Assembly: GCF_963921235.1 (NCBI RefSeq)
Contig: NC_086107.1
Coordinates: forward strand, 96,102,001 to 96,166,000
Direction of reading: 5' to 3'
Length of the DNA: 64,000 bases
DNA from: Mobula hypostoma
Taxonomy: Eukaryota
The position numbers were made by a program, and so were the translations under genes. The stretch's first letter is position 1. Each line of letters begins with the position of its first letter. Below, piece by piece: positions 38,232-64,000 of this stretch. The notes under the pieces were generated by a model that saw nothing but the letters and a program-made list of their open reading frames with translations, was not told the origin of the DNA and did not search any database.

Positions 38232-38280
<49 letters not shown>

Positions 38281-39179: not shown

Positions 39180-39367
39180 ATCGCTTCTCGGCCTTTTGGC
39201 TAAGATCAAGTGTAGTATCTGTTCTTATCAGTTTAATATCTGATACGTCCCTTATCTGGGGACCATATATTAAATTGATTTTTGGAACAGGGAGATGGAA
39301 TAGGGGCTTGCTCCGTCCACTCCACGCATCGACCCGGTATTGCAGTGCCTCTGGGAACGGTGCACTC
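39180..39367 (+). ncRNA. RNU2: U2 snRNA, copy 9
   Basis: Same sequence as copy 1. Confidence 0.99.
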
Positions 39368-40972: not shown

Positions 40973-41019
<47 letters not shown>

Positions 41020-41918: not shown

Positions 41919-42106
41919 ATCGCTTCTCGGCCTTTTGGCTAAGATCAAGTGTAGTATCTGTTCTTATCAGTTTAATATCTGATACGTCCCTTATCTGGGG
42001 ACCATATATTAAATTGATTTTTGGAACAGGGAGATGGAATAGGGGCTTGCTCCGTCCACTCCACGCATCGACCCGGTATTGCAGTGCCTCTGGGAACGGT
42101 GCACTC
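41919..42106 (+). ncRNA. RNU2: U2 snRNA, copy 10
   Basis: Same sequence as copy 1. Confidence 0.99.
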
Positions 42107-43709
42107 CCCTTCTGGGGAATTTCAAAGTAGCAAAGAAAAGGAAAACGACGAAAGCTCCATCAGGCACAGCAGCACAGACAAGCATGCACGCACATGGAGA
42201 GAGAGGAGAGAGCTAGCTGCTTGCTCTACACTTCTCCTGTGTCTGTGTCTGTCTGTCGATACAGCTCACTCACTCACTCACGCCATGGGCAGACAACTCA
42301 ACAACAGCACGAGCATCATATATCTGGGCCATTTGATCAAGCCATTTGATGGCTAAGATCAAGTGCACATCCAGGCTGCAACCAGATCAGGTGCTGCAGG
42401 CAAGGCAGCAACTTCATGAGAGATGCCCCTTGGCATTCATTCCTGAAGCAAACTGCTCAACCGGCACACTCATTCTGATGCCTGCTCACTCGGCAGCTGC
42501 CTGCACCAAGCACAGAAGCAGAGTGAAGCGGAGCGGGCCGAAAGGCCTTTTCTGTCCCGCCACGCTCGCTCCACTTCTCAGGCTCAGGCTTCTCAGCTGC
42601 TCCTTGAAGCCAACGGAGGACGGGACGGACGGACGGACGGGCGGGCGAACGAACGAACGAACGAACGAACGAGGCGAATGAACGAATGATTTCACCAGCA
42701 GCCAGCCTGTCGGACAGGCAGGCTCGTTCAAGTGTGCCAGCAGCCAGGGCTCGTGGACGAGAGGAAGGAAGGGAGGCATCCGATGGAGCCCGGCCACAGA
42801 GCAACGGGGCCCGGTGCTGCATCCTCCCCGCCTGCACCAGACTGCCAAGACTGCTGCTCTCCTGCCCAGACAGACAGACAGACAGACAGACCAGCTACAA
42901 GCATCACCACCTAGCCATAGCACCAGCAAAACTCTGCCTACCTGCCCTGGCCTGGCCTGGCCTCCTCTGCTCTGCCCGACCCGACCCGACTCGACTCACA
43001 AATCTCCATTGTGATGCGTCTGCCTGCCCCTGCCCCAGCCCCAAAGCCCCGCCCACCGTTCGAGGCAAGGCAGAGGCACAACCCCCCACTCAGACCTCCC
43101 CAATATACATTGGCAGTGCAGTGCATCTCCAGCCTCGCTCAAAATCACGTCCCAAACCCCAAAATCACTCAAACCTCTCATGCTTACACGTACCTACTCG
43201 GCGTCCAGCTTTGGCGCACGTCTCCACAAGTGCCACATCCATCCACGTGCCCCTGCTTCACGCACAGCACAGCACTGTGCCTCCCTCCGGCAGGCATTTC
43301 GCCGATCCATTTCCTGTTTCACAACCAAGGCATAATCAGTACCCCTTTCCTTCCACAGCACAGCGCGCACACGCGCCCGCCCACTCCGCCACCGAGCCAT
43401 GCCGGCCAAAAACGCACCTGCACAGCAGTGGGGCACAGGGCCGCCGTCAGCCCGCCACACATTTCCCTCCTTCCCTCCTATTTCTACATCCGTGCACCCA
43501 CCCCGCTGCAAAACCAGTCAGTCTGCTCAGGCGTCAGCACAGAGGCATAGTGAAGGGCCTCGGCCCTTCTCCCTTTACTGCCCTCTGTACATGTGACCAG
43601 AGCTTGGCAGATCCCTCAGCACTCCGTGTGCACGTGTGTCTGTGACTCTGTGTCTCTGTGAGATTGAGTGAGTGAGTGAGTGAGTCAGTGAGAGAGAGAG
43701 AGACAGACA

Positions 43710-43760
<51 letters not shown>

Positions 43761-44659
43761 ACCCCCATCCACCCTGGTAAAAAAAAGGTGGTGGGGGAGC
43801 AGGGGAGAAGACACTGTGTCCAATCATAGCCTGTGCAGACGCAAAGTCTGCAGCTTCTGGAGATGAAACAAACTCAATCCACTCAACAATTGTAATTGCA
43901 CACACGTCAAAATAAAGGCACAGAGGTGTGAATGGCTGCACTTCAGCCTTCGGCTTGGAGAGCACACCCATTGTTTCTCCTCAGGCACACCTGTAGCTGA
44001 CATCCTCCTGTTCCCAAACTTGCCAGGAGGCTTTTCTGCCCGCGGACTTTGGCCACGTCCACAACCCTCGTACCGGTCTTGAGCGTTGCACGTGGCCTCT
44101 GCCTTTGTCGCCCGGCGCAGTCCCATCCGCTCGCTCCCTCCCGGAGAGGGCAGAGCCTCCGAAGGAGACCGTTCAGCTGGATGGATGCGCCGGCCAGCTA
44201 GGGCGCGCAAAGCCGAGAGGCGCGCTCTCTTTGCCGAGTGCAGGGACGCCCTTGAAGGGCCCAGCGGCCTGCTCCCACTCCCCCTGCAGACTCTTGTGCA
44301 GACAGGACAGCGTGACCAGCCTCCCATGACCAGGAGAGCAGTGCAAGTTGAGCCAGCCTCTGAGACCGACCTGGGAGCCGGCAGCCTTGACGTAGGCAGT
44401 GTGCCAGTGACGTAGGCGCCCATAAGTACGGCCCCACTCCCAGATGATTGGTGGATCACTAGCAGCTTTACATAGCCTCTGACAACTTGCACTCATGACG
44501 GACCAGGTAGGCAACAGCTGTCCAGCACACCCACCCATCCCAGACAACCTAGGGGAGAGCTGCCAGCGGGCCAGGGCAGCAAGGTCTTTGCCAGGCCTCC
44601 TGCTTCAATCTAAACACCAGAGGCTAGGCAGGATGTAGCCGACTCAAGCGTATGCCTGC

Positions 44660-44847
44660 ATCGCTTCTCGGCCTTTTGGCTAAGATCAAGTGTAGTATCT
44701 GTTCTTATCAGTTTAATATCTGATACGTCCCTTATCTGGGGACCATATATTAAATTGATTTTTGGAACAGGGAGATGGAATAGGGGCTTGCTCCGTCCAC
44801 TCCACGCATCGACCCGGTATTGCAGTGCCTCTGGGAACGGTGCACTC
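44660..44847 (+). ncRNA. RNU2: U2 snRNA, copy 11
   Basis: Same sequence as copy 1. Confidence 0.99.
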
Positions 44848-46452
44848 CCCTTCTGGGGAATTTCAAAGTAGCAAAGAAAAGGAAAACGACGAAAGCTCCA
44901 TCAGGCACAGCAGCACAGACAAGCATGCACGCACATGGAGAGAGAGGAGAGAGCTAGCTGCTTGCTCTACACTTCTCCTGTGTCTGTGTCTGTCTGTCGA
45001 TACAGCTCACTCACTCACTCACGCCATGGGCAGACAACTCAACAACAGCACGAGCATCATATATCTGGGCCATTTGATCAAGCCATTTGATGGCTAAGAT
45101 CAAGTGCACATCCAGGCTGCAACCAGATCAGGTGCTGCAGGCAAGGCAGCAACTTCATGAGAGATGCCCCTTGGCATTCATTCCTGAAGCAAACTGCTCA
45201 ACCGGCACACTCATTCTGATGCCTGCTCACTCGGCAGCTGCCTGCACCAAGCACAGAAGCAGAGTGAAGCGGAGCGGGCCGAAAGGCCTTTTCTGTCCCG
45301 CCACGCTCGCTCCACTTCTCAGGCTCAGGCTTCTCAGCTGCTCCTTGAAGCCAACGGAGGACGGGACGGACGGACGGACGGGCGAACGAACGAACGAACG
45401 AACGAACGAACGAGGCGAATGAACGAATGATTTCACCAGCAGCCAGCCTGTCGGACAGGCAGGCTCGTTCAAGTGTGCCAGCAGCCAGGGCTCGTGGACG
45501 AGAGGAAGGAAGGGAGGCATCCGATGGAGCCCGGCCACAGAGCAACGGGGCCCGGTGCTGCATCCTCCCCGCCTGCACCAGACTGCCAAGACTGCTGCTC
45601 TCCTGCCCAGACAGACAGACAGACAGACAGACCAGCTACAAGCATCACCACCTAGCCATAGCACCAGCAAAACTCTGCCTACCTGCCCTGGCCTGGCCTG
45701 GCCTCCTCTGCTCTGCCCGACCCGACCCGACTCGACTCACAAATCTCCATTGTGATGCGTCTGCCTGCCCCTGCCCCAGCCCCAAAGCCCCGCCCACCGT
45801 TCGAGGCAAGGCAGAGGCACAACCCCCCACTCAGACCTCCCCAATATACATTGGCAGTGCAGTGCATCTCCAGCCTCGCTCAAAATCACGTCCCAAACCC
45901 CAAAATCACTCAAACCTCTCATGCTTACACGTACCTACTCGGCGTCCAGCTTTGGCGCACGTCTCCACAAGTGCCACATCCATCCACGTGCCCCTGCTTC
46001 ACGCACAGCACAGCACTGTGCCTCCCTCCGGCAGGCATTTCGCCGATCCATTTCCTGTTTCACAACCAAGGCATAATCAGTACCCCTTTCCTTCCACAGC
46101 ACAGCGCGCACACGCGCCCGCCCACTCCGCCACCGAGCCATGCCGGCCAAAAACGCACCTGCACAGCAGTGGGGCACAGGGCCGCCGTCAGCCCGCCACA
46201 CATTTCCCTCCTTCCCTCCTATTTCTACATCCGTGCACCCACCCCGCTGCAAAACCAGTCAGTCTGCTCAGGCGTCAGCACAGAGGCATAGTGAAGGGCC
46301 TCGGCCCTTCTCCCTTTACTGCCCTCTGTACATGTGACCAGAGCTTGGCAGATCCCTCAGCACTCCGTGTGCACGTGTGTCTGTGACTCTGTGTCTCTGT
46401 GAGATTGAGTGAGTGAGTGAGTGAGTCAGTGAGAGAGAGAGACAGACAGACA

Positions 46453-46501
<49 letters not shown>

Positions 46502-47400
46502 ACCCCCATCCACCCTGGTAAAAAAAAGGTGGTGGGGGAGCAGGGGAGAAGACACTGTGTCCAATCATAGCCTGTGCAGACGCAAAGTCTGCAGCTTCTG
46601 GAGATGAAACAAACTCAATCCACTCAACAATTGTAATTGCACACACGTCAAAATAAAGGCACAGAGGTGTGAATGGCTGCACTTCAGCCTTCGGCTTGGA
46701 GAGCACACCCATTGTTTCTCCTCAGGCACACCTGTAGCTGACATCCTCCTGTTCCCAAACTTGCCAGGAGGCTTTTCTGCCCGCGGACTTTGGCCACGTC
46801 CACAACCCTCGTACCGGTCTTGAGCGTTGCACGTGGCCTCTGCCTTTGTCGCCCGGCGCAGTCCCATCCGCTCGCTCCCTCCCGGAGAGGGCAGAGCCTC
46901 CGAAGGAGACCGTTCAGCTGGATGGATGCGCCGGCCAGCTAGGGCGCGCAAAGCCGAGAGGCGCGCTCTCTTTGCCGAGTGCAGGGACGCCCTTGAAGGG
47001 CCCAGCGGCCTGCTCCCACTCCCCCTGCAGACTCTTGTGCAGACAGGACAGCGTGACCAGCCTCCCATGACCAGGAGAGCAGTGCAAGTTGAGCCAGCCT
47101 CTGAGACCGACCTGGGAGCCGGCAGCCTTGACGTAGGCAGTGTGCCAGTGACGTAGGCGCCCATAAGTACGGCCCCACTCCCAGATGATTGGTGGATCAC
47201 TAGCAGCTTTACATAGCCTCTGACAACTTGCACTCATGACGGACCAGGTAGGCAACAGCTGTCCAGCACACCCACCCATCCCAGACAACCTAGGGGAGAG
47301 CTGCCAGCGGGCCAGGGCAGCAAGGTCTTTGCCAGGCCTCCTGCTTCAATCTAAACACCAGAGGCTAGGCAGGATGTAGCCGACTCAAGCGTATGCCTGC

Positions 47401-47588
47401 ATCGCTTCTCGGCCTTTTGGCTAAGATCAAGTGTAGTATCTGTTCTTATCAGTTTAATATCTGATACGTCCCTTATCTGGGGACCATATATTAAATTGAT
47501 TTTTGGAACAGGGAGATGGAATAGGGGCTTGCTCCGTCCACTCCACGCATCGACCCGGTATTGCAGTGCCTCTGGGAACGGTGCACTC
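47401..47588 (+). ncRNA. RNU2: U2 snRNA, copy 12
   Basis: Same sequence as copy 1. Confidence 0.99.
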
Positions 47589-49195
47589 CCCTTCTGGGGA
47601 ATTTCAAAGTAGCAAAGAAAAGGAAAACGACGAAAGCTCCATCAGGCACAGCAGCACAGACAAGCATGCACGCACATGGAGAGAGAGGAGAGAGCTAGCT
47701 GCTTGCTCTACACTTCTCCTGTGTCTGTGTCTGTCTGTCGATACAGCTCACTCACTCACTCACGCCATGGGCAGACAACTCAACAACAGCACGAGCATCA
47801 TATATCTGGGCCATTTGATCAAGCCATTTGATGGCTAAGATCAAGTGCACATCCAGGCTGCAACCAGATCAGGTGCTGCAGGCAAGGCAGCAACTTCATG
47901 AGAGATGCCCCTTGGCATTCATTCCTGAAGCAAACTGCTCAACCGGCACACTCATTCTGATGCCTGCTCACTCGGCAGCTGCCTGCACCAAGCACAGAAG
48001 CAGAGTGAAGCGGAGCGGGCCGAAAGGCCTTTTCTGTCCCGCCACGCTCGCTCCACTTCTCAGGCTCAGGCTTCTCAGCTGCTCCTTGAAGCCAACGGAG
48101 GACGGGACGGACGGACGGACGGACGGGCGGGAACGAACGAACGAACGAACGAACGAGGCGAATGAACGAATGATTTCACCAGCAGCCAGCCTGTCGGACA
48201 GGCAGGCTCGTTCAAGTGTGCCAGCAGCCAGGGCTCGTGGACGAGAGGAAGGAAGGGAGGCATCCGATGGAGCCCGGCCACAGAGCAACGGGGCCCGGTG
48301 CTGCATCCTCCCCGCCTGCACCAGACTGCCAAGACTGCTGCTCTCCTGCCCAGACAGACAGACAGACAGACAGACCAGCTACAAGCATCACCACCTAGCC
48401 ATAGCACCAGCAAAACTCTGCCTACCTGCCCTGGCCTGGCCTGGCCTCCTCTGCTCTGCCCGACCCGACCCGACTCGACTCACAAATCTCCATTGTGATG
48501 CGTCTGCCTGCCCCTGCCCCAGCCCCAAAGCCCCGCCCACCGTTCGAGGCAAGGCAGAGGCACAACCCCCCACTCAGACCTCCCCAATATACATTGGCAG
48601 TGCAGTGCATCTCCAGCCTCGCTCAAAATCACGTCCCAAACCCCAAAATCACTCAAACCTCTCATGCTTACACGTACCTACTCGGCGTCCAGCTTTGGCG
48701 CACGTCTCCACAAGTGCCACATCCATCCACGTGCCCCTGCTTCACGCACAGCACAGCACTGTGCCTCCCTCCGGCAGGCATTTCGCCGATCCATTTCCTG
48801 TTTCACAACCAAGGCATAATCAGTACCCCTTTCCTTCCACAGCACAGCGCGCACACGCGCCCGCCCACTCCGCCACCGAGCCATGCCGGCCAAAAACGCA
48901 CCTGCACAGCAGTGGGGCACAGGGCCGCCGTCAGCCCGCCACACATTTCCCTCCTTCCCTCCTATTTCTACATCCGTGCACCCACCCCGCTGCAAAACCA
49001 GTCAGTCTGCTCAGGCGTCAGCACAGAGGCATAGTGAAGGGCCTCGGCCCTTCTCCCTTTACTGCCCTCTGTACATGTGACCAGAGCTTGGCAGATCCCT
49101 CAGCACTCCGTGTGCACGTGTGTCTGTGACTCTGTGTCTCTGTGAGATTGAGTGAGTGAGTGAGTGAGTCAGTGAGAGAGAGAGACAGACAGACA

Positions 49196-49246
<51 letters not shown>

Positions 49247-50145
49247 ACCCCCATCCACCCTGGTAAAAAAAAGGTGGTGGGGGAGCAGGGGAGAAGACAC
49301 TGTGTCCAATCATAGCCTGTGCAGACGCAAAGTCTGCAGCTTCTGGAGATGAAACAAACTCAATCCACTCAACAATTGTAATTGCACACACGTCAAAATA
49401 AAGGCACAGAGGTGTGAATGGCTGCACTTCAGCCTTCGGCTTGGAGAGCACACCCATTGTTTCTCCTCAGGCACACCTGTAGCTGACATCCTCCTGTTCC
49501 CAAACTTGCCAGGAGGCTTTTCTGCCCGCGGACTTTGGCCACGTCCACAACCCTCGTACCGGTCTTGAGCGTTGCACGTGGCCTCTGCCTTTGTCGCCCG
49601 GCGCAGTCCCATCCGCTCGCTCCCTCCCGGAGAGGGCAGAGCCTCCGAAGGAGACCGTTCAGCTGGATGGATGCGCCGGCCAGCTAGGGCGCGCAAAGCC
49701 GAGAGGCGCGCTCTCTTTGCCGAGTGCAGGGACGCCCTTGAAGGGCCCAGCGGCCTGCTCCCACTCCCCCTGCAGACTCTTGTGCAGACAGGACAGCGTG
49801 ACCAGCCTCCCATGACCAGGAGAGCAGTGCAAGTTGAGCCAGCCTCTGAGACCGACCTGGGAGCCGGCAGCCTTGACGTAGGCAGTGTGCCAGTGACGTA
49901 GGCGCCCATAAGTACGGCCCCACTCCCAGATGATTGGTGGATCACTAGCAGCTTTACATAGCCTCTGACAACTTGCACTCATGACGGACCAGGTAGGCAA
50001 CAGCTGTCCAGCACACCCACCCATCCCAGACAACCTAGGGGAGAGCTGCCAGCGGGCCAGGGCAGCAAGGTCTTTGCCAGGCCTCCTGCTTCAATCTAAA
50101 CACCAGAGGCTAGGCAGGATGTAGCCGACTCAAGCGTATGCCTGC

Positions 50146-50333
50146 ATCGCTTCTCGGCCTTTTGGCTAAGATCAAGTGTAGTATCTGTTCTTATCAGTTT
50201 AATATCTGATACGTCCCTTATCTGGGGACCATATATTAAATTGATTTTTGGAACAGGGAGATGGAATAGGGGCTTGCTCCGTCCACTCCACGCATCGACC
50301 CGGTATTGCAGTGCCTCTGGGAACGGTGCACTC
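50146..50333 (+). ncRNA. RNU2: U2 snRNA, copy 13
   Basis: Same sequence as copy 1. Confidence 0.99.
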
Positions 50334-51946
50334 CCCTTCTGGGGAATTTCAAAGTAGCAAAGAAAAGGAAAACGACGAAAGCTCCATCAGGCACAGCAGC
50401 ACAGACAAGCATGCACGCACATGGAGAGAGAGGAGAGAGCTAGCTGCTTGCTCTACACTTCTCCTGTGTCTGTGTCTGTCTGTCGATACAGCTCACTCAC
50501 TCACTCACGCCATGGGCAGACAACTCAACAACAGCACGAGCATCATATATCTGGGCCATTTGATCAAGCCATTTGATGGCTAAGATCAAGTGCACATCCA
50601 GGCTGCAACCAGATCAGGTGCTGCAGGCAAGGCAGCAACTTCATGAGAGATGCCCCTTGGCATTCATTCCTGAAGCAAACTGCTCAACCGGCACACTCAT
50701 TCTGATGCCTGCTCACTCGGCAGCTGCCTGCACCAAGCACAGAAGCAGAGTGAAGCGGAGCGGGCCGAAAGGCCTTTTCTGTCCCGCCACGCTCGCTCCA
50801 CTTCTCAGGCTCAGGCTTCTCAGCTGCTCCTTGAAGCCAACGGAGGACGGGACGGACGGACGGACGGGCGGGCGAACGAACGAACGAACGAACGAACGAA
50901 CGAACGAGGCGAATGAACGAATGATTTCACCAGCAGCCAGCCTGTCGGACAGGCAGGCTCGTTCAAGTGTGCCAGCAGCCAGGGCTCGTGGACGAGAGGA
51001 AGGAAGGGAGGCATCCGATGGAGCCCGGCCACAGAGCAACGGGGCCCGGTGCTGCATCCTCCCCGCCTGCACCAGACTGCCAAGACTGCTGCTCTCCTGC
51101 CCAGACAGACAGACAGACAGACAGACCAGCTACAAGCATCACCACCTAGCCATAGCACCAGCAAAACTCTGCCTACCTGCCCTGGCCTGGCCTGGCCTCC
51201 TCTGCTCTGCCCGACCCGACCCGACTCGACTCACAAATCTCCATTGTGATGCGTCTGCCTGCCCCTGCCCCAGCCCCAAAGCCCCGCCCACCGTTCGAGG
51301 CAAGGCAGAGGCACAACCCCCCACTCAGACCTCCCCAATATACATTGGCAGTGCAGTGCATCTCCAGCCTCGCTCAAAATCACGTCCCAAACCCCAAAAT
51401 CACTCAAACCTCTCATGCTTACACGTACCTACTCGGCGTCCAGCTTTGGCGCACGTCTCCACAAGTGCCACATCCATCCACGTGCCCCTGCTTCACGCAC
51501 AGCACAGCACTGTGCCTCCCTCCGGCAGGCATTTCGCCGATCCATTTCCTGTTTCACAACCAAGGCATAATCAGTACCCCTTTCCTTCCACAGCACAGCG
51601 CGCACACGCGCCCGCCCACTCCGCCACCGAGCCATGCCGGCCAAAAACGCACCTGCACAGCAGTGGGGCACAGGGCCGCCGTCAGCCCGCCACACATTTC
51701 CCTCCTTCCCTCCTATTTCTACATCCGTGCACCCACCCCGCTGCAAAACCAGTCAGTCTGCTCAGGCGTCAGCACAGAGGCATAGTGAAGGGCCTCGGCC
51801 CTTCTCCCTTTACTGCCCTCTGTACATGTGACCAGAGCTTGGCAGATCCCTCAGCACTCCGTGTGCACGTGTGTCTGTGACTCTGTGTCTCTGTGAGATT
51901 GAGTGAGTGAGTGAGTGAGTCAGTGAGAGAGAGAGACAGACAGACA

Positions 51947-51997
<51 letters not shown>

Positions 51998-52896
51998 ACC
52001 CCCATCCACCCTGGTAAAAAAAAGGTGGTGGGGGAGCAGGGGAGAAGACACTGTGTCCAATCATAGCCTGTGCAGACGCAAAGTCTGCAGCTTCTGGAGA
52101 TGAAACAAACTCAATCCACTCAACAATTGTAATTGCACACACGTCAAAATAAAGGCACAGAGGTGTGAATGGCTGCACTTCAGCCTTCGGCTTGGAGAGC
52201 ACACCCATTGTTTCTCCTCAGGCACACCTGTAGCTGACATCCTCCTGTTCCCAAACTTGCCAGGAGGCTTTTCTGCCCGCGGACTTTGGCCACGTCCACA
52301 ACCCTCGTACCGGTCTTGAGCGTTGCACGTGGCCTCTGCCTTTGTCGCCCGGCGCAGTCCCATCCGCTCGCTCCCTCCCGGAGAGGGCAGAGCCTCCGAA
52401 GGAGACCGTTCAGCTGGATGGATGCGCCGGCCAGCTAGGGCGCGCAAAGCCGAGAGGCGCGCTCTCTTTGCCGAGTGCAGGGACGCCCTTGAAGGGCCCA
52501 GCGGCCTGCTCCCACTCCCCCTGCAGACTCTTGTGCAGACAGGACAGCGTGACCAGCCTCCCATGACCAGGAGAGCAGTGCAAGTTGAGCCAGCCTCTGA
52601 GACCGACCTGGGAGCCGGCAGCCTTGACGTAGGCAGTGTGCCAGTGACGTAGGCGCCCATAAGTACGGCCCCACTCCCAGATGATTGGTGGATCACTAGC
52701 AGCTTTACATAGCCTCTGACAACTTGCACTCATGACGGACCAGGTAGGCAACAGCTGTCCAGCACACCCACCCATCCCAGACAACCTAGGGGAGAGCTGC
52801 CAGCGGGCCAGGGCAGCAAGGTCTTTGCCAGGCCTCCTGCTTCAATCTAAACACCAGAGGCTAGGCAGGATGTAGCCGACTCAAGCGTATGCCTGC

Positions 52897-52948
52897 ATCG
52901 CTTCTCGGCCTTTTGGCTAAGATCAAGTGTAGTATCTGTTCTTATCAG
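52897..52948 (+). pseudogene. RNU2: Interrupted U2 copy 14, 5' part (nt 1-52)
   Basis: U2 sequence stops after ...TTCTTATCAG and continues as ACCAGAAGG (element). Confidence 0.97.
52935..52948 (+). repeat. Left target-site duplication TCTGTTCTTATCAG (U2 nt 39-52)
   Basis: Identical 14-mer at 58110-58123; 15 bp if the preceding A is counted. Confidence 0.95.
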
Positions 52949-53053
52949 ACCAGAAGGCGGAGGTGAAGAGTTCGCGCTGACGCAGGGGTGGATCCTAATG
53001 CTGATTGGCCTCCAATCTAACACCCCATACCAGCGACGACAGCAGTGAGGAAG

Positions 53054-54481
53054 ATGGCAGCAGCGAGCAGTGCATCGGCTCGAGGCCAAGGTATCAAGAA
53101 CACTGTCAGGCTGACAGTGCGAGACCGGAACGGGGGCACCGGCTTCACCCGAGAGACCTTCATCCGGAAGGTCTTGATGGAATGCTGCGGATTTACGCCT
53201 GACGACATCTACTGCGTCCAGGACTTTGCAGGTTTTTTCGACGTGACTTTCCGGCAGGCTGCAGGGTGGCAGAAGCTGTACCAGCAGCTTCAGCTGAAGG
53301 GGACAGAGGCGCCGCTGTCGCTGTTGAAAGCACAGGCCCTCTTTGCCACGGCTACCCAGCAGGAACGGACAATCACGGTGCACATGTTCAACCCGCACGT
53401 GCCATTGGTAGATGTCCTTACATTCCTCGCTCGGTATGTGGAGAGCGTAGGAACGCCAGCAGACGTGAAGGACGGACTGGGAATCTGGACCAGCAAACGG
53501 CAGGTCAAGGTGAAGCTGAGGTTGGACTCCAACGGCGGCGTCATCCACCCCCCCTCCGTCTTCGCCATCGGAGGGAACCGAGGGTACACGGTGTACGCGG
53601 GGCAACCCAGGGTGTGCCGAAACTGCGGCAAGGCAGGGCACATCGCAGCCCAGTGCAGGGTGGTGATGTGCAAGAACTGCAAAACTGAAGGCCACCTGAC
53701 CAAAGACTGCACGCAGGCCAAGTCCTGCAACCTTTGTGGACAAGACGGCCACCTGTACAGAGCCTGCCCGAGGCGTGGGGGCACCTACGCACAGGCAACC
53801 AGGGGTGGTGCTGGTCCTGAAAGGGCCCAGGCAGTTTCGGACGCCCCTGCCAGCACTGCCGAAGAGGCACCCGACAGGGCGGACGATGAGACCAGGGAGG
53901 AAGGGGCAAGCACCCCGAGACCTGCCACCCCACTGCAGACCCTCCAGGACCAAGCAAATGACGAGCAGGAGTCCATGGAGGAAGGGACAGCTGAGGTGGA
54001 AACGGAATGGAAGGTCGTGAAACGGAAAAAGACCCAAAAGGCGGCGGCCAAGCGACAGAAGGCGGAGCAACGCAAGAAAAGGGCAGGGAACCACACAGCC
54101 TCTGGTACCCTGTCCTCTTCAGAGGAGGAAGGAGTTGGGGGAGGCCAGCAGCCCCAGCGGAAGAAGCGGCTGGCAGAACAGGTGGAGAGGAGGAGAGAGG
54201 AGGGGGAAAGTCTGCTGGCCACCCCCCAAGTACAGGAGGCGGAGAGCAGCAGACACACCGAGCTCCGGGAATCCGGGAGCAGAGCCACGGTTGGCACCCA
54301 GCAGCCGGAAGGGGAAGCAGCCCAGGAAGCCAACAACCCCCCGGGCCCAGAACCAGAACGGCCACACACGGAGGAGTACTACCAGCAGTACCTGAGCCCA
54401 CAGGAGGTGGAAAACTTCACAAAGGCGGTGGGAATGAAGGCTCAGGATGGCAAGGATGAGGACGGAGTGCAGCCAAAATAA
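53054..54481 (+). CDS. ORF1p: nucleic-acid-binding protein with three CCHC zinc knuckles (Tx1 ORF1, ZCCHC3-like architecture)
   Basis: First ATG at 53054 (475 aa). Knuckles CRNCGKAGHIAAQC, CKNCKTEGHLTKDC, CNLCGQDGHLYRAC, then an acidic/basic tail with WKVVKRKK. Confidence 0.92.
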   Translation: MAAASSASARGQGIKNTVRLTVRDRNGGTGFTRETFIRKVLMECCGFTPDDIYCVQDFAGFFDVTFRQAAGWQKLYQQLQLKGTEAPLSLLKAQALFATATQQERTITVHMFNPHVPLVDVLTFLARYVESVGTPADVKDGLGIWTSKRQVKVKLRLDSNGGVIHPPSVFAIGGNRGYTVYAGQPRVCRNCGKAGHIAAQCRVVMCKNCKTEGHLTKDCTQAKSCNLCGQDGHLYRACPRRGGTYAQATRGGAGPERAQAVSDAPASTAEEAPDRADDETREEGASTPRPATPLQTLQDQANDEQESMEEGTAEVETEWKVVKRKKTQKAAAKRQKAEQRKKRAGNHTASGTLSSSEEEGVGGGQQPQRKKRLAEQVERRREEGESLLATPQVQEAESSRHTELRESGSRATVGTQQPEGEAAQEANNPPGPEPERPHTEEYYQQYLSPQEVENFTKAVGMKAQDGKDEDGVQPK

Positions 54482-54491
54482 GAGACCTACA

Positions 54492-57400
54492 ATGATGGCA
54501 GACCTTAAATTGGCGTGCTTGAATGTGCGAAGTTTGAAGAGTACTGGGCGATGCGTCAGCACGCTCCAGTACCTGGACACTGTAAAGACCGACGTGACCT
54601 TCCTCCAGGAGTGCGGACTACCACATCTCCGTAACTACCGGAGGTGGTCACGGTGGTGGAAAAAAGGTTTGTCTGTGTGGTCGGGGGGCAACGATTGTCG
54701 CGCTTCCGGCCTGGGGATTCTGCTACGGGGAGGTAACTTCTCAATCACCCAAGTTAAAGAGGTGGTTGCGGGGCGCCTCCTGGTAGCAGACGTCAAATAC
54801 CGGGGCACTCCGCTCCGGCTGATCAACGTGTACGCCTCCCCCGTTCGGAGCGAGCGGCTGGCCGTCTTCGAGCAGCTCCCACAGCTGCTGGTGACGTCCC
54901 AGCCGGTCGTTCTGGCCGGAGACTTCAACTGCACCATTGATGCGGCTGGAGGACCCGGCAGCGCCGACGGCAGGCTGGACAGTACCTCCAGACTCCTGAG
55001 GGAAATAGTAAAGACGGCCAAGCTGCGCGACGCCTTTGGCACCCCCACAGGTGGAGCACAGCCGCAAGCCACCTGGACACGGTCGGACGGCTCAGCCCGC
55101 TCCCGGATCGACTTCCTCTTCCTGTCAGAGCCCCTCACGGTCAGGTCCACCGACGTCACGCCGGTGTTCTTCTCTGACCACTGCCTTCTGAGAGCCACCT
55201 GTCGCTTACGGGAGGACCAGAAGGCAGGCAGGGGGACGTGGAAGCTGAATGTTAAGCTGCTGACCCCAGAGAACATCGAGGAACTAGAGAGGGAGTACAC
55301 AGGTTGGAGAACCTTGAAAGCCTTCTTTGATTCCCCGGTTCACTGGTGGGAAGCCACCAAAGAGAACATTAAGAGGTTCTTCATCCGCAAGGGTATCCAG
55401 AAGGCAAGGCAGGAGCAGAGGGAACTGCGTAAACTCCAGACAGAGTTGCAGCAACTTCTCCTTCTGCAGTCGAAGGGGGTGGATGTCAGGGAGGAATTGC
55501 GAGAGGTGAAGGGCCGGCAAGCCCATAACCTCGCCGCCGAATCCTCCAAGATCATCTTCCGATCAAGGGTCCAAACCGTGGAGCAGGACGAGACGTGCTC
55601 ACGCTTCTTCTTCCAAAAGGTGCACAGGGGGAGCTCTGTGATCCACAACCTTAAGGAAGAGGACGGCTCAGTCGCGTCCTCGCAGACCGACATACTGAGG
55701 ATCTGCAAGTCCTTCTATGCCGGTCTGTACGACGAAAAGGCCACAGAATCCACAGCCTCCCGCAACTTCCTGTCGTCTATCACGCAGGTCTTAGACGGCG
55801 GCAAGCGGGAGAGTCTGGATCAGCCACTGACCCTGGACGAGCTGACAGGCTCCATCCGTTCCTTTGGGTCGGGTAAGACTCCCGGAAGCGACGGCTTACC
55901 GGCTGAGTTGTACTCGGCTCTGTGGAACTGGATAGGCCCAGACCTGCTGGAAGTGTACAATGCTATGCTTCTGGCCGGCAGTATGTCTGAGTCCATGAGG
56001 AAGGGCATCATCACCCTCATCTACAAGCAGAAGGGGGAAAGAGAGGACATTAGAAATTGGAGACCCATCTCTCTCCTGAATGTGGACTACAAGATCCTGT
56101 CCAAGGCTATCGCCAACAGGGTCAAGTCTGCTCTGGGACAGGTGATCCACCCAGACCAAACCTGTGCTGTACCAGGCAGGAAGATCTCAGACAGCCTCGC
56201 GCTGCTGAGGGACACCATCGCCTACGTGCAGGACAGGAGGGTGGACGCCTGCCTGGTCAGCTTGGACCAGGAGAAAGCCTTCGACAGGATATCGCACACG
56301 TACATGGCGGACGTGCTCTCCAAAATGGGATTTGGGGAGGGAATCCGGAATTGGATCAGACTGCTCTACACAGACATCCGTAGTGCAGTCCAGGTCAACG
56401 GGTGGGAAACAGACAGCTTCCCCATCAGGTCTGGAGTCAGGCAGGGCTGTCCCCTCTCCCCTGTCTTGTTTGTCTGCTGCATAGAACCCTTTGCGGAAGC
56501 CATTAGGAGGGATGAGGGCATAAGAGGGGTGACGCTGCCAGGCAGTGGAGGGACCCAAGTGAAAACCTCCCTGTACATGGACGACGTCACCGTCTTCTGC
56601 TCTGATCCGAGGTCAGTTCGCAGGTTGATTGGCACCTGCGAACAGTTCGAGCTAGCGTCGGGGGCCAGGGTCAACCGCACGAAGAGCGAAGCCATGCTCT
56701 TCGGCAACTGGCCCGACCGATCCAGCGTCCCCTTCAACATCAGGTCTGACCACGTGAAGGTGTTGGGGATATGGTTCGGAGGGGCGGAGGCGTGCAACAA
56801 GAACTGGCAGGAGCGGACTGCCAAGGTGAAACAGAAACTGGGACTGTGGGGAGGGCGCTCCCTGTCGATAACGGGCAAGAACCTGGTCATCAGGTGTGAG
56901 GTGCTCTCAGGGCTGCTGTACTTGGCGCAGGTCTGGCCCGTCCCCCGCTCCTACAGCTCGGAAATCACCCGGGCTGTCTTCAGATTCGTCTGGGGATCCA
57001 AGATGGAGCGGGTGGGACGGACCGCCATGCACAAGTCCCTGGACAACGGGGGCAAGAACGTCCCCAATGTCGCCCTCACCCTGATGGCCAGCTTCGTATG
57101 TGGCTGCATCAGGTTGTGTGTAGAGCCCAGGTATGTGGGCACCAAGTACCGCTACGTGCCCAGGTTCTACTTGTCGCCCTGGCTACGAAGGATGGGTCTG
57201 GCCCCACTCCCGCGCAACGCCCCAGTCAGCTGGTCGTTGCCGGCATACCTGTCCTACGTAGCAAAGTTCTTCCAGGAGAACGCCTTTGACCACAGGGCCA
57301 TCAGGCAGTGGTCGGCACGTAGTGTCCTGCAGGCACTGCAGGAGAAGGACGTGATGGACACAGTGGGGTGGTTCCCGGAGCAGACTGTCCAGTTCATCTG

Positions 57401-57905
57401 GCAAAATGCCTCATCGCCAGATCTAACCAACAGGCACCAAGACCTCGCCTGGCTGGCGGTGAGAGGGGCCCTCCCAGTCAGAGCCCTCCTGTACGCCCGG
57501 AACGTCGTCTCCGCACCCCATTGCCCACGGGAGGACTGCAGTGAGGAGGAGTCTGTGACCCACCTCTTTGCACACTGCCAGTTCGCAAAGAGGGTGTGGA
57601 GGAGGATGGATGGGCTAGTGTCACGGTTTATCCCCAGCAGCTGCGTAACAGAGGACTCTCTGATCTACGGGCTGTTCCCGGGGACACACACGGAGACCAA
57701 CGTCCGGTGCTGCTGGCAGATCATCAACTCGGTGAAAGATGCTATTTGGTCGGCCCGTAACTTGATGATCTACCAGCACATGGAGATGTCCGTGGGAGAA
57801 TGCTGCCGACTGGCACATTCTCGACTGCAGGAGTACGTGCTGAGGGACGCACTGAAACTTGGTGCAGCCACCGCAAGGGCCCGGTGGGGAAGGACCACAG
57901 TATAG
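54492..57905 (+). CDS. ORF2p: APE endonuclease, reverse transcriptase and C-terminal CCHC zinc finger
   Basis: Endonuclease motifs LNVRSL, FLQE, GDFN, SRIDF, FSDH. RT motifs PGSDGL, WRPISLLNVDYKIL, DQEKAFD, GVRQGCPLSP, YMDD. C-terminal CPREDC..ESVTHLFAHC. Likely start at ATG 54492 (1137 aa); an in-frame ATG at 54447 overlaps ORF1. Confidence 0.96.
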   Translation: MMADLKLACLNVRSLKSTGRCVSTLQYLDTVKTDVTFLQECGLPHLRNYRRWSRWWKKGLSVWSGGNDCRASGLGILLRGGNFSITQVKEVVAGRLLVADVKYRGTPLRLINVYASPVRSERLAVFEQLPQLLVTSQPVVLAGDFNCTIDAAGGPGSADGRLDSTSRLLREIVKTAKLRDAFGTPTGGAQPQATWTRSDGSARSRIDFLFLSEPLTVRSTDVTPVFFSDHCLLRATCRLREDQKAGRGTWKLNVKLLTPENIEELEREYTGWRTLKAFFDSPVHWWEATKENIKRFFIRKGIQKARQEQRELRKLQTELQQLLLLQSKGVDVREELREVKGRQAHNLAAESSKIIFRSRVQTVEQDETCSRFFFQKVHRGSSVIHNLKEEDGSVASSQTDILRICKSFYAGLYDEKATESTASRNFLSSITQVLDGGKRESLDQPLTLDELTGSIRSFGSGKTPGSDGLPAELYSALWNWIGPDLLEVYNAMLLAGSMSESMRKGIITLIYKQKGEREDIRNWRPISLLNVDYKILSKAIANRVKSALGQVIHPDQTCAVPGRKISDSLALLRDTIAYVQDRRVDACLVSLDQEKAFDRISHTYMADVLSKMGFGEGIRNWIRLLYTDIRSAVQVNGWETDSFPIRSGVRQGCPLSPVLFVCCIEPFAEAIRRDEGIRGVTLPGSGGTQVKTSLYMDDVTVFCSDPRSVRRLIGTCEQFELASGARVNRTKSEAMLFGNWPDRSSVPFNIRSDHVKVLGIWFGGAEACNKNWQERTAKVKQKLGLWGGRSLSITGKNLVIRCEVLSGLLYLAQVWPVPRSYSSEITRAVFRFVWGSKMERVGRTAMHKSLDNGGKNVPNVALTLMASFVCGCIRLCVEPRYVGTKYRYVPRFYLSPWLRRMGLAPLPRNAPVSWSLPAYLSYVAKFFQENAFDHRAIRQWSARSVLQALQEKDVMDTVGWFPEQTVQFIWQNASSPDLTNRHQDLAWLAVRGALPVRALLYARNVVSAPHCPREDCSEEESVTHLFAHCQFAKRVWRRMDGLVSRFIPSSCVTEDSLIYGLFPGTHTETNVRCCWQIINSVKDAIWSARNLMIYQHMEMSVGECCRLAHSRLQEYVLRDALKLGAATARARWGRTTV

Positions 57906-58109
57906 GTTTCTCCACCCGTGGGAGTGGGAGGGGTCGGAGGGCGGGGAGTATACCCCTCAACAATGAAATGATGTGGTATAAATACGGATATGTACTGTGT
58001 ATAATGCAAACGTATGTAAAGGATGAAAAGTTATTGAATGGTTTATTGTATATATTTATTTTTGAATAAAGTATATTTTGAAATAAAAAAAAAAAAAAAA
58101 AAAAAAAAA

Positions 58110-58259
58110 TCTGTTCTTATCAGTTTAATATCTGATACGTCCCTTATCTGGGGACCATATATTAAATTGATTTTTGGAACAGGGAGATGGAATAGGGGCT
58201 TGCTCCGTCCACTCCACGCATCGACCCGGTATTGCAGTGCCTCTGGGAACGGTGCACTC
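58110..58259 (+). pseudogene. RNU2: Interrupted U2 copy 14, 3' part (nt 39-188), starting with the right TSD at 58110-58123
   Basis: U2 resumes at TCTGTTCTTATCAGTTTAAT directly after the poly(A). Confidence 0.97.
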
Positions 58260-59870
58260 CCCTTCTGGGGAATTTCAAAGTAGCAAAGAAAAGGAAAACG
58301 ACGAAAGCTCCATCAGGCACAGCAGCACAGACAAGCATGCACGCACATGGAGAGAGAGGAGAGAGCTAGCTGCTTGCTCTACACTTCTCCTGTGTCTGTG
58401 TCTGTCTGTCGATACAGCTCACTCACTCACTCACGCCATGGGCAGACAACTCAACAACAGCACGAGCATCATATATCTGGGCCATTTGATCAAGCCATTT
58501 GATGGCTAAGATCAAGTGCACATCCAGGCTGCAACCAGATCAGGTGCTGCAGGCAAGGCAGCAACTTCATGAGAGATGCCCCTTGGCATTCATTCCTGAA
58601 GCAAACTGCTCAACCGGCACACTCATTCTGATGCCTGCTCACTCGGCAGCTGCCTGCACCAAGCACAGAAGCAGAGTGAAGCGGAGCGGGCCGAAAGGCC
58701 TTTTCTGTCCCGCCACGCTCGCTCCACTTCTCAGGCTCAGGCTTCTCAGCTGCTCCTTGAAGCCAACGGAGGACGGGACGGACGGACGGACGGGCGGGCG
58801 AACGAACGAACGAACGAACGAACGAACGAACGAGGCGAATGAACGAATGATTTCACCAGCAGCCAGCCTGTCGGACAGGCAGGCTCGTTCAAGTGTGCCA
58901 GCAGCCAGGGCTCGTGGACGAGAGGAAGGAAGGGAGGCATCCGATGGAGCCCGGCCACAGAGCAACGGGGCCCGGTGCTGCATCCTCCCCGCCTGCACCA
59001 GACTGCCAAGACTGCTGCTCTCCTGCCCAGACAGACAGACAGACAGACAGACCAGCTACAAGCATCACCACCTAGCCATAGCACCAGCAAAACTCTGCCT
59101 ACCTGCCCTGGCCTGGCCTGGCCTCCTCTGCTCTGCCCGACCCGACCCGACTCGACTCACAAATCTCCATTGTGATGCGTCTGCCTGCCCCTGCCCCAGC
59201 CCCAAAGCCCCGCCCACCGTTCGAGGCAAGGCAGAGGCACAACCCCCCACTCAGACCTCCCCAATATACATTGGCAGTGCAGTGCATCTCCAGCCTCGCT
59301 CAAAATCACGTCCCAAACCCCAAAATCACTCAAACCTCTCATGCTTACACGTACCTACTCGGCGTCCAGCTTTGGCGCACGTCTCCACAAGTGCCACATC
59401 CATCCACGTGCCCCTGCTTCACGCACAGCACAGCACTGTGCCTCCCTCCGGCAGGCATTTCGCCGATCCATTTCCTGTTTCACAACCAAGGCATAATCAG
59501 TACCCCTTTCCTTCCACAGCACAGCGCGCACACGCGCCCGCCCACTCCGCCACCGAGCCATGCCGGCCAAAAACGCACCTGCACAGCAGTGGGGCACAGG
59601 GCCGCCGTCAGCCCGCCACACATTTCCCTCCTTCCCTCCTATTTCTACATCCGTGCACCCACCCCGCTGCAAAACCAGTCAGTCTGCTCAGGCGTCAGCA
59701 CAGAGGCATAGTGAAGGGCCTCGGCCCTTCTCCCTTTACTGCCCTCTGTACATGTGACCAGAGCTTGGCAGATCCCTCAGCACTCCGTGTGCACGTGTGT
59801 CTGTGACTCTGTGTCTCTGTGAGATTGAGTGAGTGAGTGAGTGAGTCAGTGAGAGAGAGACAGACAGACA

Positions 59871-60824: not shown

Positions 60825-60876
60825 ATCGCTTCTCGGCCTTTTGGCTAAGATCAAGTGTAGTATCTGTTCTTATCAG
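60825..60876 (+). pseudogene. RNU2: Interrupted U2 copy 15, 5' part (nt 1-52)
   Basis: Same junction as copy 14 (TTATCAG|ACCAGAAGG). Confidence 0.97.
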
Positions 60877-60981
60877 ACCAGAAGGCGGAGGTGAAGAGTT
60901 CGCGCTGACGCAGGGGTGGATCCTAATGCTGATTGGCCTCCAATCTAACACCCCATACCAGCGACGACAGCAGTGAGGAAG

Positions 60982-62411
60982 ATGGCAGCAGCGAGCAGTG
61001 CATCGGCTCGAGGCCAAGGTATCAAGAACACTGTCAGGCTGACAGTGCGAGACCGGAACGGGGGCACACCGGCTTCACCCGAGAGACCTTCATCCGGAAG
61101 GTCTTGATGGAATGCTGCGGATTTACGCCTGACGACATCTACTGCGTCCAGGACTTTGCAGGTTTTTTCGACGTGACTTTCCGGCAGGCTGCAGGGTGGC
61201 AGAAGCTGTACCAGCAGCTTCAGCTGAAGGGGACAGAGGCGCCGCTGTCGCTGTTGAAAGCACAGGCCCTCTTTGCCACGGCTACCCAGCAGGAACGGAC
61301 AATCACGGTGCACATGTTCAACCCGCACGTGCCATTGGTAGATGTCCTTACATTCCTCGCTCGGTATGTGGAGAGCGTAGGAACGCCAGCAGACGTGAAG
61401 GACGGACTGGGAATCTGGACCAGCAAACGGCAGGTCAAGGTGAAGCTGAGGTTGGACTCCAACGGCGGCGTCATCCACCCCCCCTCCGTCTTCGCCATCG
61501 GAGGGAACCGAGGGTACACGGTGTACGCGGGGCAACCCAGGGTGTGCCGAAACTGCGGCAAGGCAGGGCACATCGCAGCCCAGTGCAGGGTGGTGATGTG
61601 CAAGAACTGCAAAACTGAAGGCCACCTGACCAAAGACTGCACGCAGGCCAAGTCCTGCAACCTTTGTGGACAAGACGGCCACCTGTACAGAGCCTGCCCG
61701 AGGCGTGGGGGCACCTACGCACAGGCAACCAGGGGTGGTGCTGGTCCTGAAAGGGCCCAGGCAGTTTCGGACGCCCCTGCCAGCACTGCCGAAGAGGCAC
61801 CCGACAGGGCGGACGATGAGACCAGGGAGGAAGGGGCAAGCACCCCGAGACCTGCCACCCCACTGCAGACCCTCCAGGACCAAGCAAATGACGAGCAGGA
61901 GTCCATGGAGGAAGGGACAGCTGAGGTGGAAACGGAATGGAAGGTCGTGAAACGGAAAAAGACCCAAAAGGCGGCGGCCAAGCGACAGAAGGCGGAGCAA
62001 CGCAAGAAAAGGGCAGGGAACCACACAGCCTCTGGTACCCTGTCCTCTTCAGAGGAGGAAGGAGTTGGGGGAGGCCAGCAGCCCCAGCGGAAGAAGCGGC
62101 TGGCAGAACAGGTGGAGAGGAGGAGAGAGGAGGGGGAAAGTCTGCTGGCCACCCCCCAAGTACAGGAGGCGGAGAGCAGCAGACACACCGAGCTCCGGGA
62201 ATCCGGGAGCAGAGCCACGGTTGGCACCCAGCAGCCGGAAGGGGAAGCAGCCCAGGAAGCCAACAACCCCCCGGGCCCAGAACCAGAACGGCCACACACG
62301 GAGGAGTACTACCAGCAGTACCTGAGCCCACAGGAGGTGGAAAACTTCACAAAGGCGGTGGGAATGAAGGCTCAGGATGGCAAGGATGAGGACGGAGTGC
62401 AGCCAAAATAA
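60982..62411 (+). pseudogene. ORF1 of copy 2, frameshifted by a 2-bp insertion near 61067
   Basis: GGGGGCACACCGGC versus GGGGGCACCGGC in copy 1, which breaks the frame about 29 codons after the ATG. Could be an assembly error. Confidence 0.75.
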
Positions 62412-62421
62412 GAGACCTACA

Positions 62422-64000
62422 ATGATGGCAGACCTTAAATTGGCGTGCTTGAATGTGCGAAGTTTGAAGAGTACTGGGCGATGCGTCAGCACGCTCCAGT
62501 ACCTGGACACTGTAAAGACCGACGTGACCTTCCTCCAGGAGTGCGGACTACCACATCTCCGTAACTACCGGAGGTGGTCACGGTGGTGGAAAAAAGGTTT
62601 GTCTGTGTGGTCGGGGGGCAACGATTGTCGCGCTTCCGGCCTGGGGATTCTGCTACGGGGAGGTAACTTCTCAATCACCCAAGTTAAAGAGGTGGTTGCG
62701 GGGCGCCTCCTGGTAGCAGACGTCAAATACCGGGGCACTCCGCTCCGGCTGATCAACGTGTACGCCTCCCCCGTTCGGAGCGAGCGGCTGGCCGTCTTCG
62801 AGCAGCTCCCACAGCTGCTGGTGACGTCCCAGCCGGTCGTTCTGGCCGGAGACTTCAACTGCACCATTGATGCGGCTGGAGGACCCGGCAGCGCCGACGG
62901 CAGGCTGGACAGTACCTCCAGACTCCTGAGGGAAATAGTAAAGACGGCCAAGCTGCGCGACGCCTTTGGCACCCCCACAGGTGGAGCACAGCCGCAAGCC
63001 ACCTGGACACGGTCGGACGGCTCAGCCCGCTCCCGGATCGACTTCCTCTTCCTGTCAGAGCCCCTCACGGTCAGGTCCACCGACGTCACGCCGGTGTTCT
63101 TCTCTGACCACTGCCTTCTGAGAGCCACCTGTCGCTTACGGGAGGACCAGAAGGCAGGCAGGGGGACGTGGAAGCTGAATGTTAAGCTGCTGACCCCAGA
63201 GAACATCGAGGAACTAGAGAGGGAGTACACAGGTTGGAGAACCTTGAAAGCCTTCTTTGATTCCCCGGTTCACTGGTGGGAAGCCACCAAAGAGAACATT
63301 AAGAGGTTCTTCATCCGCAAGGGTATCCAGAAGGCAAGGCAGGAGCAGAGGGAACTGCGTAAACTCCAGACAGAGTTGCAGCAACTTCTCCTTCTGCAGT
63401 CGAAGGGGGTGGATGTCAGGGAGGAATTGCGAGAGGTGAAGGGCCGGCAAGCCCATAACCTCGCCGCCGAATCCTCCAAGATCATCTTCCGATCAAGGGT
63501 CCAAACCGTGGAGCAGGACGAGACGTGCTCACGCTTCTTCTTCCAAAAGGTGCACAGGGGGAGCTCTGTGATCCACAACCTTAGGGAAGAGGACGGCTCA
63601 GTCGCGTCCTCGCAGACCGACATACTGAGGATCTGCAAGTCCTTCTATGCCGGTCTGTACGACGAAAAGGCCACAGAATCCACAGCCTCCCGCAACTTCC
63701 TGTCGTCTATCACGCAGGTCTTAGACGGCGGCAAGCGGGAGAGTCTGGATCAGCCACTGACCCTGGACGAGCTGACAGGCTCCATCCGTTCCTTTGGGTC
63801 GGGTAAGACTCCCGGAAGCGACGGCTTACCGGCTGAGTTGTACTCGGCTCTGTGGAACTGGATAGGCCCAGACCTGCTGGAAGTGTACAATGCTATGCTT
63901 CTGGCCGGCAGGATGTCTGAGTCCATGAGGAAGGGCATCATCACCCTCATCTACAAGCAGAAGGGGGAAAGAGAGGACATTAGAAATTGGAGACCCATCT
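62422..64000 (+). CDS. ORF2p of copy 2 (endonuclease and start of RT; partial)
   Basis: Matches copy 1 ORF2 up to NWRP at the window end; two missense differences noticed. Confidence 0.9.
   Translation, partial: MMADLKLACLNVRSLKSTGRCVSTLQYLDTVKTDVTFLQECGLPHLRNYRRWSRWWKKGLSVWSGGNDCRASGLGILLRGGNFSITQVKEVVAGRLLVADVKYRGTPLRLINVYASPVRSERLAVFEQLPQLLVTSQPVVLAGDFNCTIDAAGGPGSADGRLDSTSRLLREIVKTAKLRDAFGTPTGGAQPQATWTRSDGSARSRIDFLFLSEPLTVRSTDVTPVFFSDHCLLRATCRLREDQKAGRGTWKLNVKLLTPENIEELEREYTGWRTLKAFFDSPVHWWEATKENIKRFFIRKGIQKARQEQRELRKLQTELQQLLLLQSKGVDVREELREVKGRQAHNLAAESSKIIFRSRVQTVEQDETCSRFFFQKVHRGSSVIHNLREEDGSVASSQTDILRICKSFYAGLYDEKATESTASRNFLSSITQVLDGGKRESLDQPLTLDELTGSIRSFGSGKTPGSDGLPAELYSALWNWIGPDLLEVYNAMLLAGRMSESMRKGIITLIYKQKGEREDIRNWRPI

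Follow-up and report, generated by a model that had tools for sequence, protein, structure and literature searches.

A coding-intact Keno-type retrotransposon in the tandem U2 snRNA gene array of an apparent cartilaginous fish

The window analyzed here, a stretch of 64,000 nucleotides (nt) from contig NC_086107.1 (assembly GCF_963921235.1, positions 96,102,001 to 96,166,000 of the forward strand), carries a tandem array of U2 small nuclear RNA (snRNA) genes with a repeat unit of 2.74 kb, and the 14th U2 gene of this array is split by an insert of 5,161 bp. The best explanation, to which we assign a probability of roughly 0.87, is that this insert is an autonomous retrotransposon without long terminal repeats (non-LTR), or long interspersed nuclear element (LINE), of the apurinic/apyrimidinic endonuclease (APE) type, that it belongs, within the Tx1 clade, to the Keno lineage that targets U2, and that it was inserted by target-primed reverse transcription (TPRT). 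It is a well-preserved new example of a known lineage, described in 2004, and not a new kind of element. An earlier reading of the sequence alone (the original prediction) had also pointed to Keno, and this identification is supported: the endonuclease is of the APE and not the restriction-like type, there are two open reading frames (ORFs), the sequence at the 3' flank is that of the published Keno target, and the element groups with other U2-inserted APE elements.

Both ends of the insert can be read to the base. U2 restarts behind it at nt 39 (58110) and continues to 58262. The target-site duplication (TSD), TCTGTTCTTATCAG, corresponds to U2 nt 39-52 and is a perfect repeat of 14 bp (52935-52948 and 58110-58123); because U2 nt 38 is itself an A, the TSD can also be read as 15 bp followed by a tail of 24 A residues. 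GTAGTA occupies U2 nt 33-38, and the 3' junction, at 38/39, therefore lies directly behind the box that pairs with the branch point. The 3' flank (58110-58129) reads TCTGTTCTTATCAGTTTAAT, an exact match to the published Keno target. From these junctions, the priming nick falls on the bottom strand, between the complements of U2 nt 38 and 39; the top-strand break, as read from the 14-bp duplication, comes after nt 52, 14 nt downstream. The original prediction had given an element of 5.16 kb splitting U2 copy 14, a pure A25 tail, a perfect TSD of 14-15 bp (15 bp if A38 is counted) and a 3' junction just after GTAGTA, all of which are borne out. It had also held that the next U2 gene is hit at the same base; this was confirmed for the 5' junction of the second copy, again after nt 52, whereas the 3' side falls beyond the window. 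A search of the 64-kb window found no further fragment of the element, and both copies (2/2) lie in U2 with the same 5' junction.

Two ORFs, the first with CCHC zinc knuckles, are a trait of the Tx1 clade. The frames, knuckles and Pfam matches of the element agree with the predicted pair of unbroken ORFs, a three-knuckle ORF1 and an ORF2 of APE, reverse transcriptase (RT) and CCHC domains. Pfam models RBD_ZCCHC3_1st (E = 8e-15), RBD_ZCCHC3_2nd (E = 6e-26) and zf-CCHC match ORF1, whose translation contains three CX2CX4HX4C motifs. The ORF2 frame is open from 54447 to 57905 (1,152 amino acids, aa); when the mononucleotides of ORF2 were shuffled 1,000 times, the longest open run had a mean length of 117 codons and a maximum of 285. 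Starting at the ATG at 54447 would give a 35-nt overlap with ORF1 in the +1 frame, and the likely start is one of the ATGs at 54492 and 54495, 11-14 nt past the ORF1 stop, where homology to relatives begins. ORF2 matches Exo_endo_phos at residues 40-245 (E = 4.6e-14), RVT_1 at 535-776 (E = 2e-38) and zf-RVT (E = 6e-10); downstream of the RT, Pfam found zf-RVT only and no restriction-like endonuclease (RLE) domain. Across an alignment of nine ORF2 sequences the APE positions QE41, Y115, GDFN145-147, D208 and SDH229-231 are invariant, as are several RT motifs. Among solved structures, human L1 ORF2p comes nearest, its residues 10-881 being collinear with ORF2 residues 7-867 (E = 1e-83), and R2-type proteins align in the RT core only (E = 1e-12 to 1e-19). 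The coordinates of all parts are collected in Table 1.

Table 1. The U2 array and the two element copies in the window. Positions are those of the window; UTR, untranslated region.
Feature	Position	Strand	Basis or remark
U2 snRNA tandem array	14954..52896	+	Rfam RF00004 x13; blastn of one unit against the window
U2 nt 1-52, 5' fragment of unit 14	52897..52948	+	100% match to U2 nt 1-52
Keno-type non-LTR retrotransposon copy 1, full length 5,161 bp, U2 orientation	52949..58109	+	
5' UTR, 105 nt	52949..53053	+	Sequence before the ORF1 ATG
ORF1, 475 aa: RBD_ZCCHC3_1st, RBD_ZCCHC3_2nd, three CCHC zinc knuckles, acidic/basic tail	53054..54481	+	
ORF2: APE endonuclease, reverse transcriptase (YMDD), C-terminal CCHC zf-RVT	54492..57905	+	Pfam
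3' UTR, 36% G+C, AATAAA at 58065 and 58082, terminal motif TTTTGAAAT	57906..58084	+	
Pure A25 tail	58085..58109	+	
U2 nt 39-191, 3' fragment of unit 14	58110..58262	+	Rfam, blastn
U2 nt 1-52 of unit 15, broken after the same base as unit 14	60825..60876	+	Rfam, blastn
Element copy 2, cut by the window end	60877..64000	+	99.87% identical to copy 1 over 3,122 bp

Independent elements inserted at the same site were found by the junction alone. We scanned metagenome contigs for a 22-mer composed of five A's and U2 nt 39-55, which apart from the tail contains no element sequence, and obtained 14 loci, 9 of which run on as U2. The remaining five (L002, L004, L007, L010 and L011) were dropped as one bacterial sequence, a chance match in which only U2 nt 38-55 agree; the same junction pattern gave 0 loci in viral contigs. 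Upstream of the junction, tblastn detected homology to ORF2 at six of the nine U2 loci and no protein match at L003, L005 and L006. L001, L008, L012 and L013 each carry a full ORF2 that is 34-37% identical across some 1,100 aa, and an ORF1 with 32-39% identity is present in L001, L008, L013 and the internally deleted L009; the L012 contig ends before any ORF1 region. The Pfam architecture of L001 and L013, the two scanned, equals that of the window element, with the ORF1 domains included for L001. All of the U2-inserted elements stand in the orientation of U2. Within the target, U2 nt 39-65 are identical in all seven loci that reach that far (L001, L003, L005, L008, L009, L013 and L014); L006, which leaves U2 after about nt 60, and L012, whose contig ends at nt 58, were excluded from this comparison. 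A second U2 start lies 2.9 kb downstream in L001, which is therefore also inside an array.

The 5' joins of these elements differ by lineage. In L001 (74-110), L008 (30-66) and L009 (253-290) the element begins after U2 nt 26, which corresponds to a 12-nt target deletion, whereas L013 (77-135) joins after nt 51, giving a 13-bp TSD, and the window element after nt 52, giving the TSD of 14 bp. A fixed 3' join combined with 5' joins that vary among lineages agrees with the fixed bottom-strand nick and variable top-strand break described in excerpts of PMC4640811.

For an evolutionary perspective on ORF2, we turned to its protein relatives. At E <= 0.001 a full HMMER search retrieved 99,524 proteins, among which the best long matches were 36-48% identical, with fragments reaching 85% (P0117, 250 aa) and 74% (P0075); a word-indexed search returned 32 matches, the best at 46%. 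A FastTree phylogeny was built from 134 rows: the window, the four metagenomic ORF2s and 129 of 174 proteins (P0001-P0026 and P0049-P0196), the 45 omitted proteins being those outside 1,000-1,350 aa, including the Metynnis fusion P0054. A single clade of 26 rows takes in all five that are U2-flanked. Within it, the window belongs to a 19-row clade (support 100, starred) together with L001, L008 and L012, its nearest rows being P0001 and two Pleurodeles waltl proteins (100, starred), and L013 belongs to the sister clade of seven rows (100, starred) together with a Coilia grayii protein. A quick IQ-TREE run on 42 rows chosen from the FastTree result gave the same topology, with starred supports of 100 for the 19 rows and for a group of 28 rows. 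We calculate that four rows drawn from the 134 blind to similarity would have a probability of about 0.001 of all landing in the 26-row clade of the window. The cluster records of 30 relatives give species names only (Metynnis, Coilia, Pleurodeles, Lepidochelys, Heterodontus, Rhincodon and Solemya) and carry no Tx1 or Keno label.

These features agree with what is published on Keno. In the excerpts available of PMC4640811, PMC4494074 and PMC6136364, Keno comprises Tx1-clade, APE-encoding non-LTR retrotransposons specific for U2 snRNA genes; the description is credited to Kojima & Fujiwara 2004, and KenoDr1, Keno-1_SSa, Tx1-5_BF and Tx1-1_HM are named as examples. The 3' target string given for Keno is TCTGTTCTTATCAGTTTAAT (PMC6136364, excerpt). 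Like Keno, the window element has an APE-RT ORF2, an ORF1 with CCHC knuckles, the orientation of U2 and a 3' flank that starts at U2 nt 39, and it clusters with other U2-inserted APE elements. It departs from published Keno elements, against which it could be set by description, in its batoid-like host and in an ORF2 no more than 48% identical to any long protein found. Keno hosts in the literature found, as far as the excerpts go, are frogs, fish, lancelet, hydra and a crocodilian-related group. No Keno in cartilaginous fish was found in the main texts, and the supplements of two Kojima papers may list more hosts. Compared with the metagenomic elements L001, L008, L012 and L013, the window element shares architecture, 3' junction and orientation; it differs from L001, L008 and L009 in having a TSD where those have the 12-nt target deletion. 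As with the R2 and R1 LINEs of ribosomal DNA, the target is one base of a conserved multicopy RNA gene, although the target of both is 28S rDNA, R2 has an RLE and a single ORF, and only its RT core aligns with the element.

The same U2 site is also used by a second group, Utopia, which consists in the excerpts of PMC4640811 of RLE-encoding, U2-specific non-LTR retrotransposons whose TSD or deletion depends on lineage and whose downstream U2 begins at nt 39, identical to the Keno flank. The bottom-strand site of the window element is thus the same as that of Utopia, and the site on its own would also fit a Utopia insertion. Utopia, however, is an early-branching group with a PD-(D/E)xK restriction-like endonuclease; an N-terminal APE domain, two ORFs, zf-RVT as the sole Pfam match downstream of the RT, and the restriction of similarity with R2-type proteins to the RT core make membership in Utopia the least likely of the explanations we considered. 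Hardly more probable is the chance arrival in U2 of an unspecific L1/Tx1-like LINE. Such an origin would be in keeping with the collinear endonuclease and RT domains of ORF2 and human LINE-1 ORF2p (PDB 8uw3, 8sxt, 9k6g and 9hdo), a protein that is not site-specific, but the ORF1 of LINE-1 is of another type, lacking the ZCCHC3-like RNA-binding domains and the knuckles. Instead of the dispersed insertion at loose TTTT/AA-type sites that marks L1, the junction here lies at a fixed U2 base, the exact base published for Keno and Utopia, which is common to four distant relatives found via the U2 junction alone; both copies in the window, moreover, lie in U2. We also regard an assembly artefact as very unlikely. 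Long, near-identical tandem arrays are hard to assemble, and the sole indel between the two copies is a CA dinucleotide in the context ...GCAC/CACC..., so that a mis-joined array or a consensus error in copy 2 would make copy number and state unreliable. The junctions, TSD and tail are nonetheless clean and as TPRT predicts, and a share of 0.79-0.92 of the element's sampled 31-mers was present in sequencing runs of the same organism, against 0.34-0.53 in runs of two others, these shares measuring word presence in the runs and implying no genomic position. Sequencing runs containing the stretch or part of it amount to 20 rows from 8 studies; none is listed as RNA, and four small ones are guessed to be RNA.

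A more serious alternative concerns the history of the two copies and depends on how the array evolves. Rfam (RF00004) detects 13 complete U2 snRNA genes on the + strand (17303..50336, 189 bits each) and three weaker matches at 52897-53028, 58052-58262 and 60825-60956. By blastn there are 13 intact units of 2,729-2,751 bp, each with the 191-nt U2 gene at its start, and the left edge of the array is a partial unit (14954-17302) that lacks the U2 gene, begins at unit position 367 and is 98.9% identical to the full units. Aligned with one another, the 14 units (unit 14 with the element removed) differ pairwise by 0-3 substitutions per 2.74 kb, in addition to changes in microsatellite length. Two spacer microsatellites, at alignment columns 723-739 and 1789-1812, change length stepwise along the array, one extra block being common to units 12-14 (columns 729-735) and another to units 8-14. 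This gradient suggests local unequal exchange rather than array-wide homogenization.

Copy 2 differs from copy 1 by two substitutions, both nonsynonymous in ORF2 (K403R and S512R), and by one 2-bp insertion (61065-61066) that shifts the frame of ORF1 at codon 28, with a stop about 13 codons on. We tried the identity between copies as a clock and rejected it: the array units are themselves no more than 0-3 substitutions apart, having been homogenized to the same degree as the copies, and this identity therefore dates nothing. Copy 2 may be a second hit or a duplicated filled unit, and the window fits both. A single old Keno insertion could accordingly have been carried into the adjacent unit through unequal crossing-over or gene conversion, and concerted evolution of the array would then explain why the copies are nearly identical. 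This would preserve the Keno type of the element and remove the claim that it is young, active and twice independently targeted. The comparable divergence of units and copies (the latter with two substitutions and one indel in 3,122 bp), the adjacency of the filled units with their identical 5' junctions, the microsatellite-length variants common to neighbouring units 12-14 as a sign of local homogenization, and the ORF1 of copy 2, already frameshifted, are all what such a history would leave behind. It accounts less readily for copy 1, with open frames of 475 and 1,152 codons, a pure A25 and a perfect TSD, and the 31-mer shares in the runs of the two other organisms suggest a family persisting across taxa. 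Weighing these, we consider a single duplicated insertion possible, though on balance unlikely.

The apparent youth given in the original prediction consequently has to be divided: it is upheld by the intact frames, pure tail and perfect TSD of copy 1, on which it now rests, and it draws nothing from the near-identity of the two copies. The observed-to-expected CpG ratio (element, 0.65; array unit, 0.55; left flank outside the array, 0.38) is compatible with youth, weakly. Copy 1 is coding-intact and, judged by its reading frames, could be retrotransposition-competent.

Several observations weigh against our reading of the element as a member of a U2-specific Keno lineage, inserted by TPRT. 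The node uniting the 26 rows is unstarred, with a support of 89 in FastTree and 82 in IQ-TREE. The U2 label requires four changes on the tree, and equally few were obtained in 39 of 500 shuffles for FastTree and 87 of 500 for IQ-TREE, a statistic that is weak because the interspersed rows have unknown flanks. The clade is labelled by U2 flanks alone, with no named Keno, Tx1, Kibi or Koshi sequences among its rows, and the targets of the other 129 rows are unspecified. Specificity within this genome depends on two adjacent copies, perhaps one insertion duplicated with its unit, and the two substitutions per 3.1 kb that separate them are much like the differences among the array units; the ORF1 of copy 2 is broken. 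Finally, nicking, co-transcription and current mobility are all things that we infer.

For an element of the Keno lineage, the insertion may be pictured as follows. By analogy with established LINE biology, the APE domain of ORF2 would make the sequence-specific nick, and the freed 3' OH would serve as primer for copying the polyadenylated element RNA by reverse transcription. ORF1, with its two RNA-binding domains and three knuckles, may act as an RNA chaperone and packaging protein, and the AATAAA about 20 nt before the tail would account for the poly(A). Because the element always shares the orientation of U2 and sits 52 nt downstream of where U2 begins, putative co-transcription from the U2 promoter can be envisaged, which would also explain the precise full-length 5' junction. 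Each insertion would knock out one unit of the multicopy array, a loss that the host would tolerate.

In biological terms the window bears out a pattern already known, without opening a new one; it extends the Keno lineage to an apparent cartilaginous fish. An intact two-ORF copy with clean junctions offers material for the question of how an APE endonuclease reads a specific sequence. The U2 target, which we take to be equal to human U2 over nt 1-70, lends a conceivable value as an insertion tool. If copy 1 is competent, it might allow single-base-precise insertion of cargo into the U2 arrays of other vertebrates, an APE-type counterpart to R2-based insertion. The stronger proposition, that copy 1 is a retrotransposition-competent vertebrate Keno whose APE recognizes a U2 stretch unchanged in very distant eukaryotes, is doubtful and should be read as speculation. 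If it held, the fact that some lineages duplicate 13-14 bp of the target and others delete 12 nt would give a handle on how second-strand cleavage is positioned. R2Ol has served in zebrafish for targeted knock-in (PMC6530143, excerpt), and our literature search found no report of Keno as an insertion tool.

The protein relatives also bear on the host. ORF1 shares 92% identity with a Mobula birostris model (77% coverage) and 89% with an M. hypostoma 'ZCCHC3-like' model, compared with 40-42% for shark models (Heterodontus, Cetorhinus and Pristiophorus), and ORF2 fragments are 63-65% identical to Heterodontus and Rhincodon models. The cartilaginous fish host of the original prediction is upheld by these values, and going by transposon proteins only, a batoid or near relative fits. 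Four RefSeq-style M. birostris and M. hypostoma gene models (P0033, P0034, P0035 and P0036) are 62-92% identical to ORF1, and three of them carry the name 'zinc finger CCHC domain-containing protein 3-like'. To judge from this similarity, all four are probably retrotransposon ORF1s (Keno) and not host ZCCHC3 paralogues.

Gene-model order, as distinct from DNA, offers a hint that relatives in two other fishes also reside in tandem arrays. In Metynnis hypsauchen, the P0054 cluster contains eight named models on three contigs, in runs of nearby locus tags, and these models are ORF1-ORF2 fusions of about 1,511 aa. In Coilia grayii, the P0059 cluster contains three consecutive gene models.

At the 3' end, seven of the nine metagenomic U2-junction elements terminate in AATAAA, a few bases, TTTT(C)(G/A)AAAG and only 6-9 A's. 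This box is carried by L001 (5750-5807), L003, L005, L008, L009, L012 and L014 and is missing in L013 and L006; the window (58060-58109) has a related motif, AATAAAGTATATTTTGAAAT, followed by A25. Its conservation among elements about 35% identical raises the prospect that the box may be a recognition signal for the RT, beyond a mere poly(A) site. At the 5' end, L013 reads CCAGGAAGG where the window has CCAGAAGG at the corresponding place. TGACGCA, ATTGG and CCAAT occur within 60 nt of one another in the 5' UTR, and these motifs could be candidate internal promoter elements.

The remaining observations concern the rest of the window. G+C is about 0.58 in the U2 array and 0.36-0.51 to its left. 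Tandem Repeats Finder reported no array in the window because its maximum period is 500 bp, and the array was instead defined by Rfam and blastn. A 315-codon RT fragment at 12386-13333 (+; RVT_1, E = 5e-33) belongs to a different LINE and is unrelated at the DNA level to the U2 element. At 320-2551 (-), an ORF of 743 codons contains a SCAN domain (E = 1e-12) and a CCHC knuckle, and is probably the gag-like remnant of an LTR retrotransposon.

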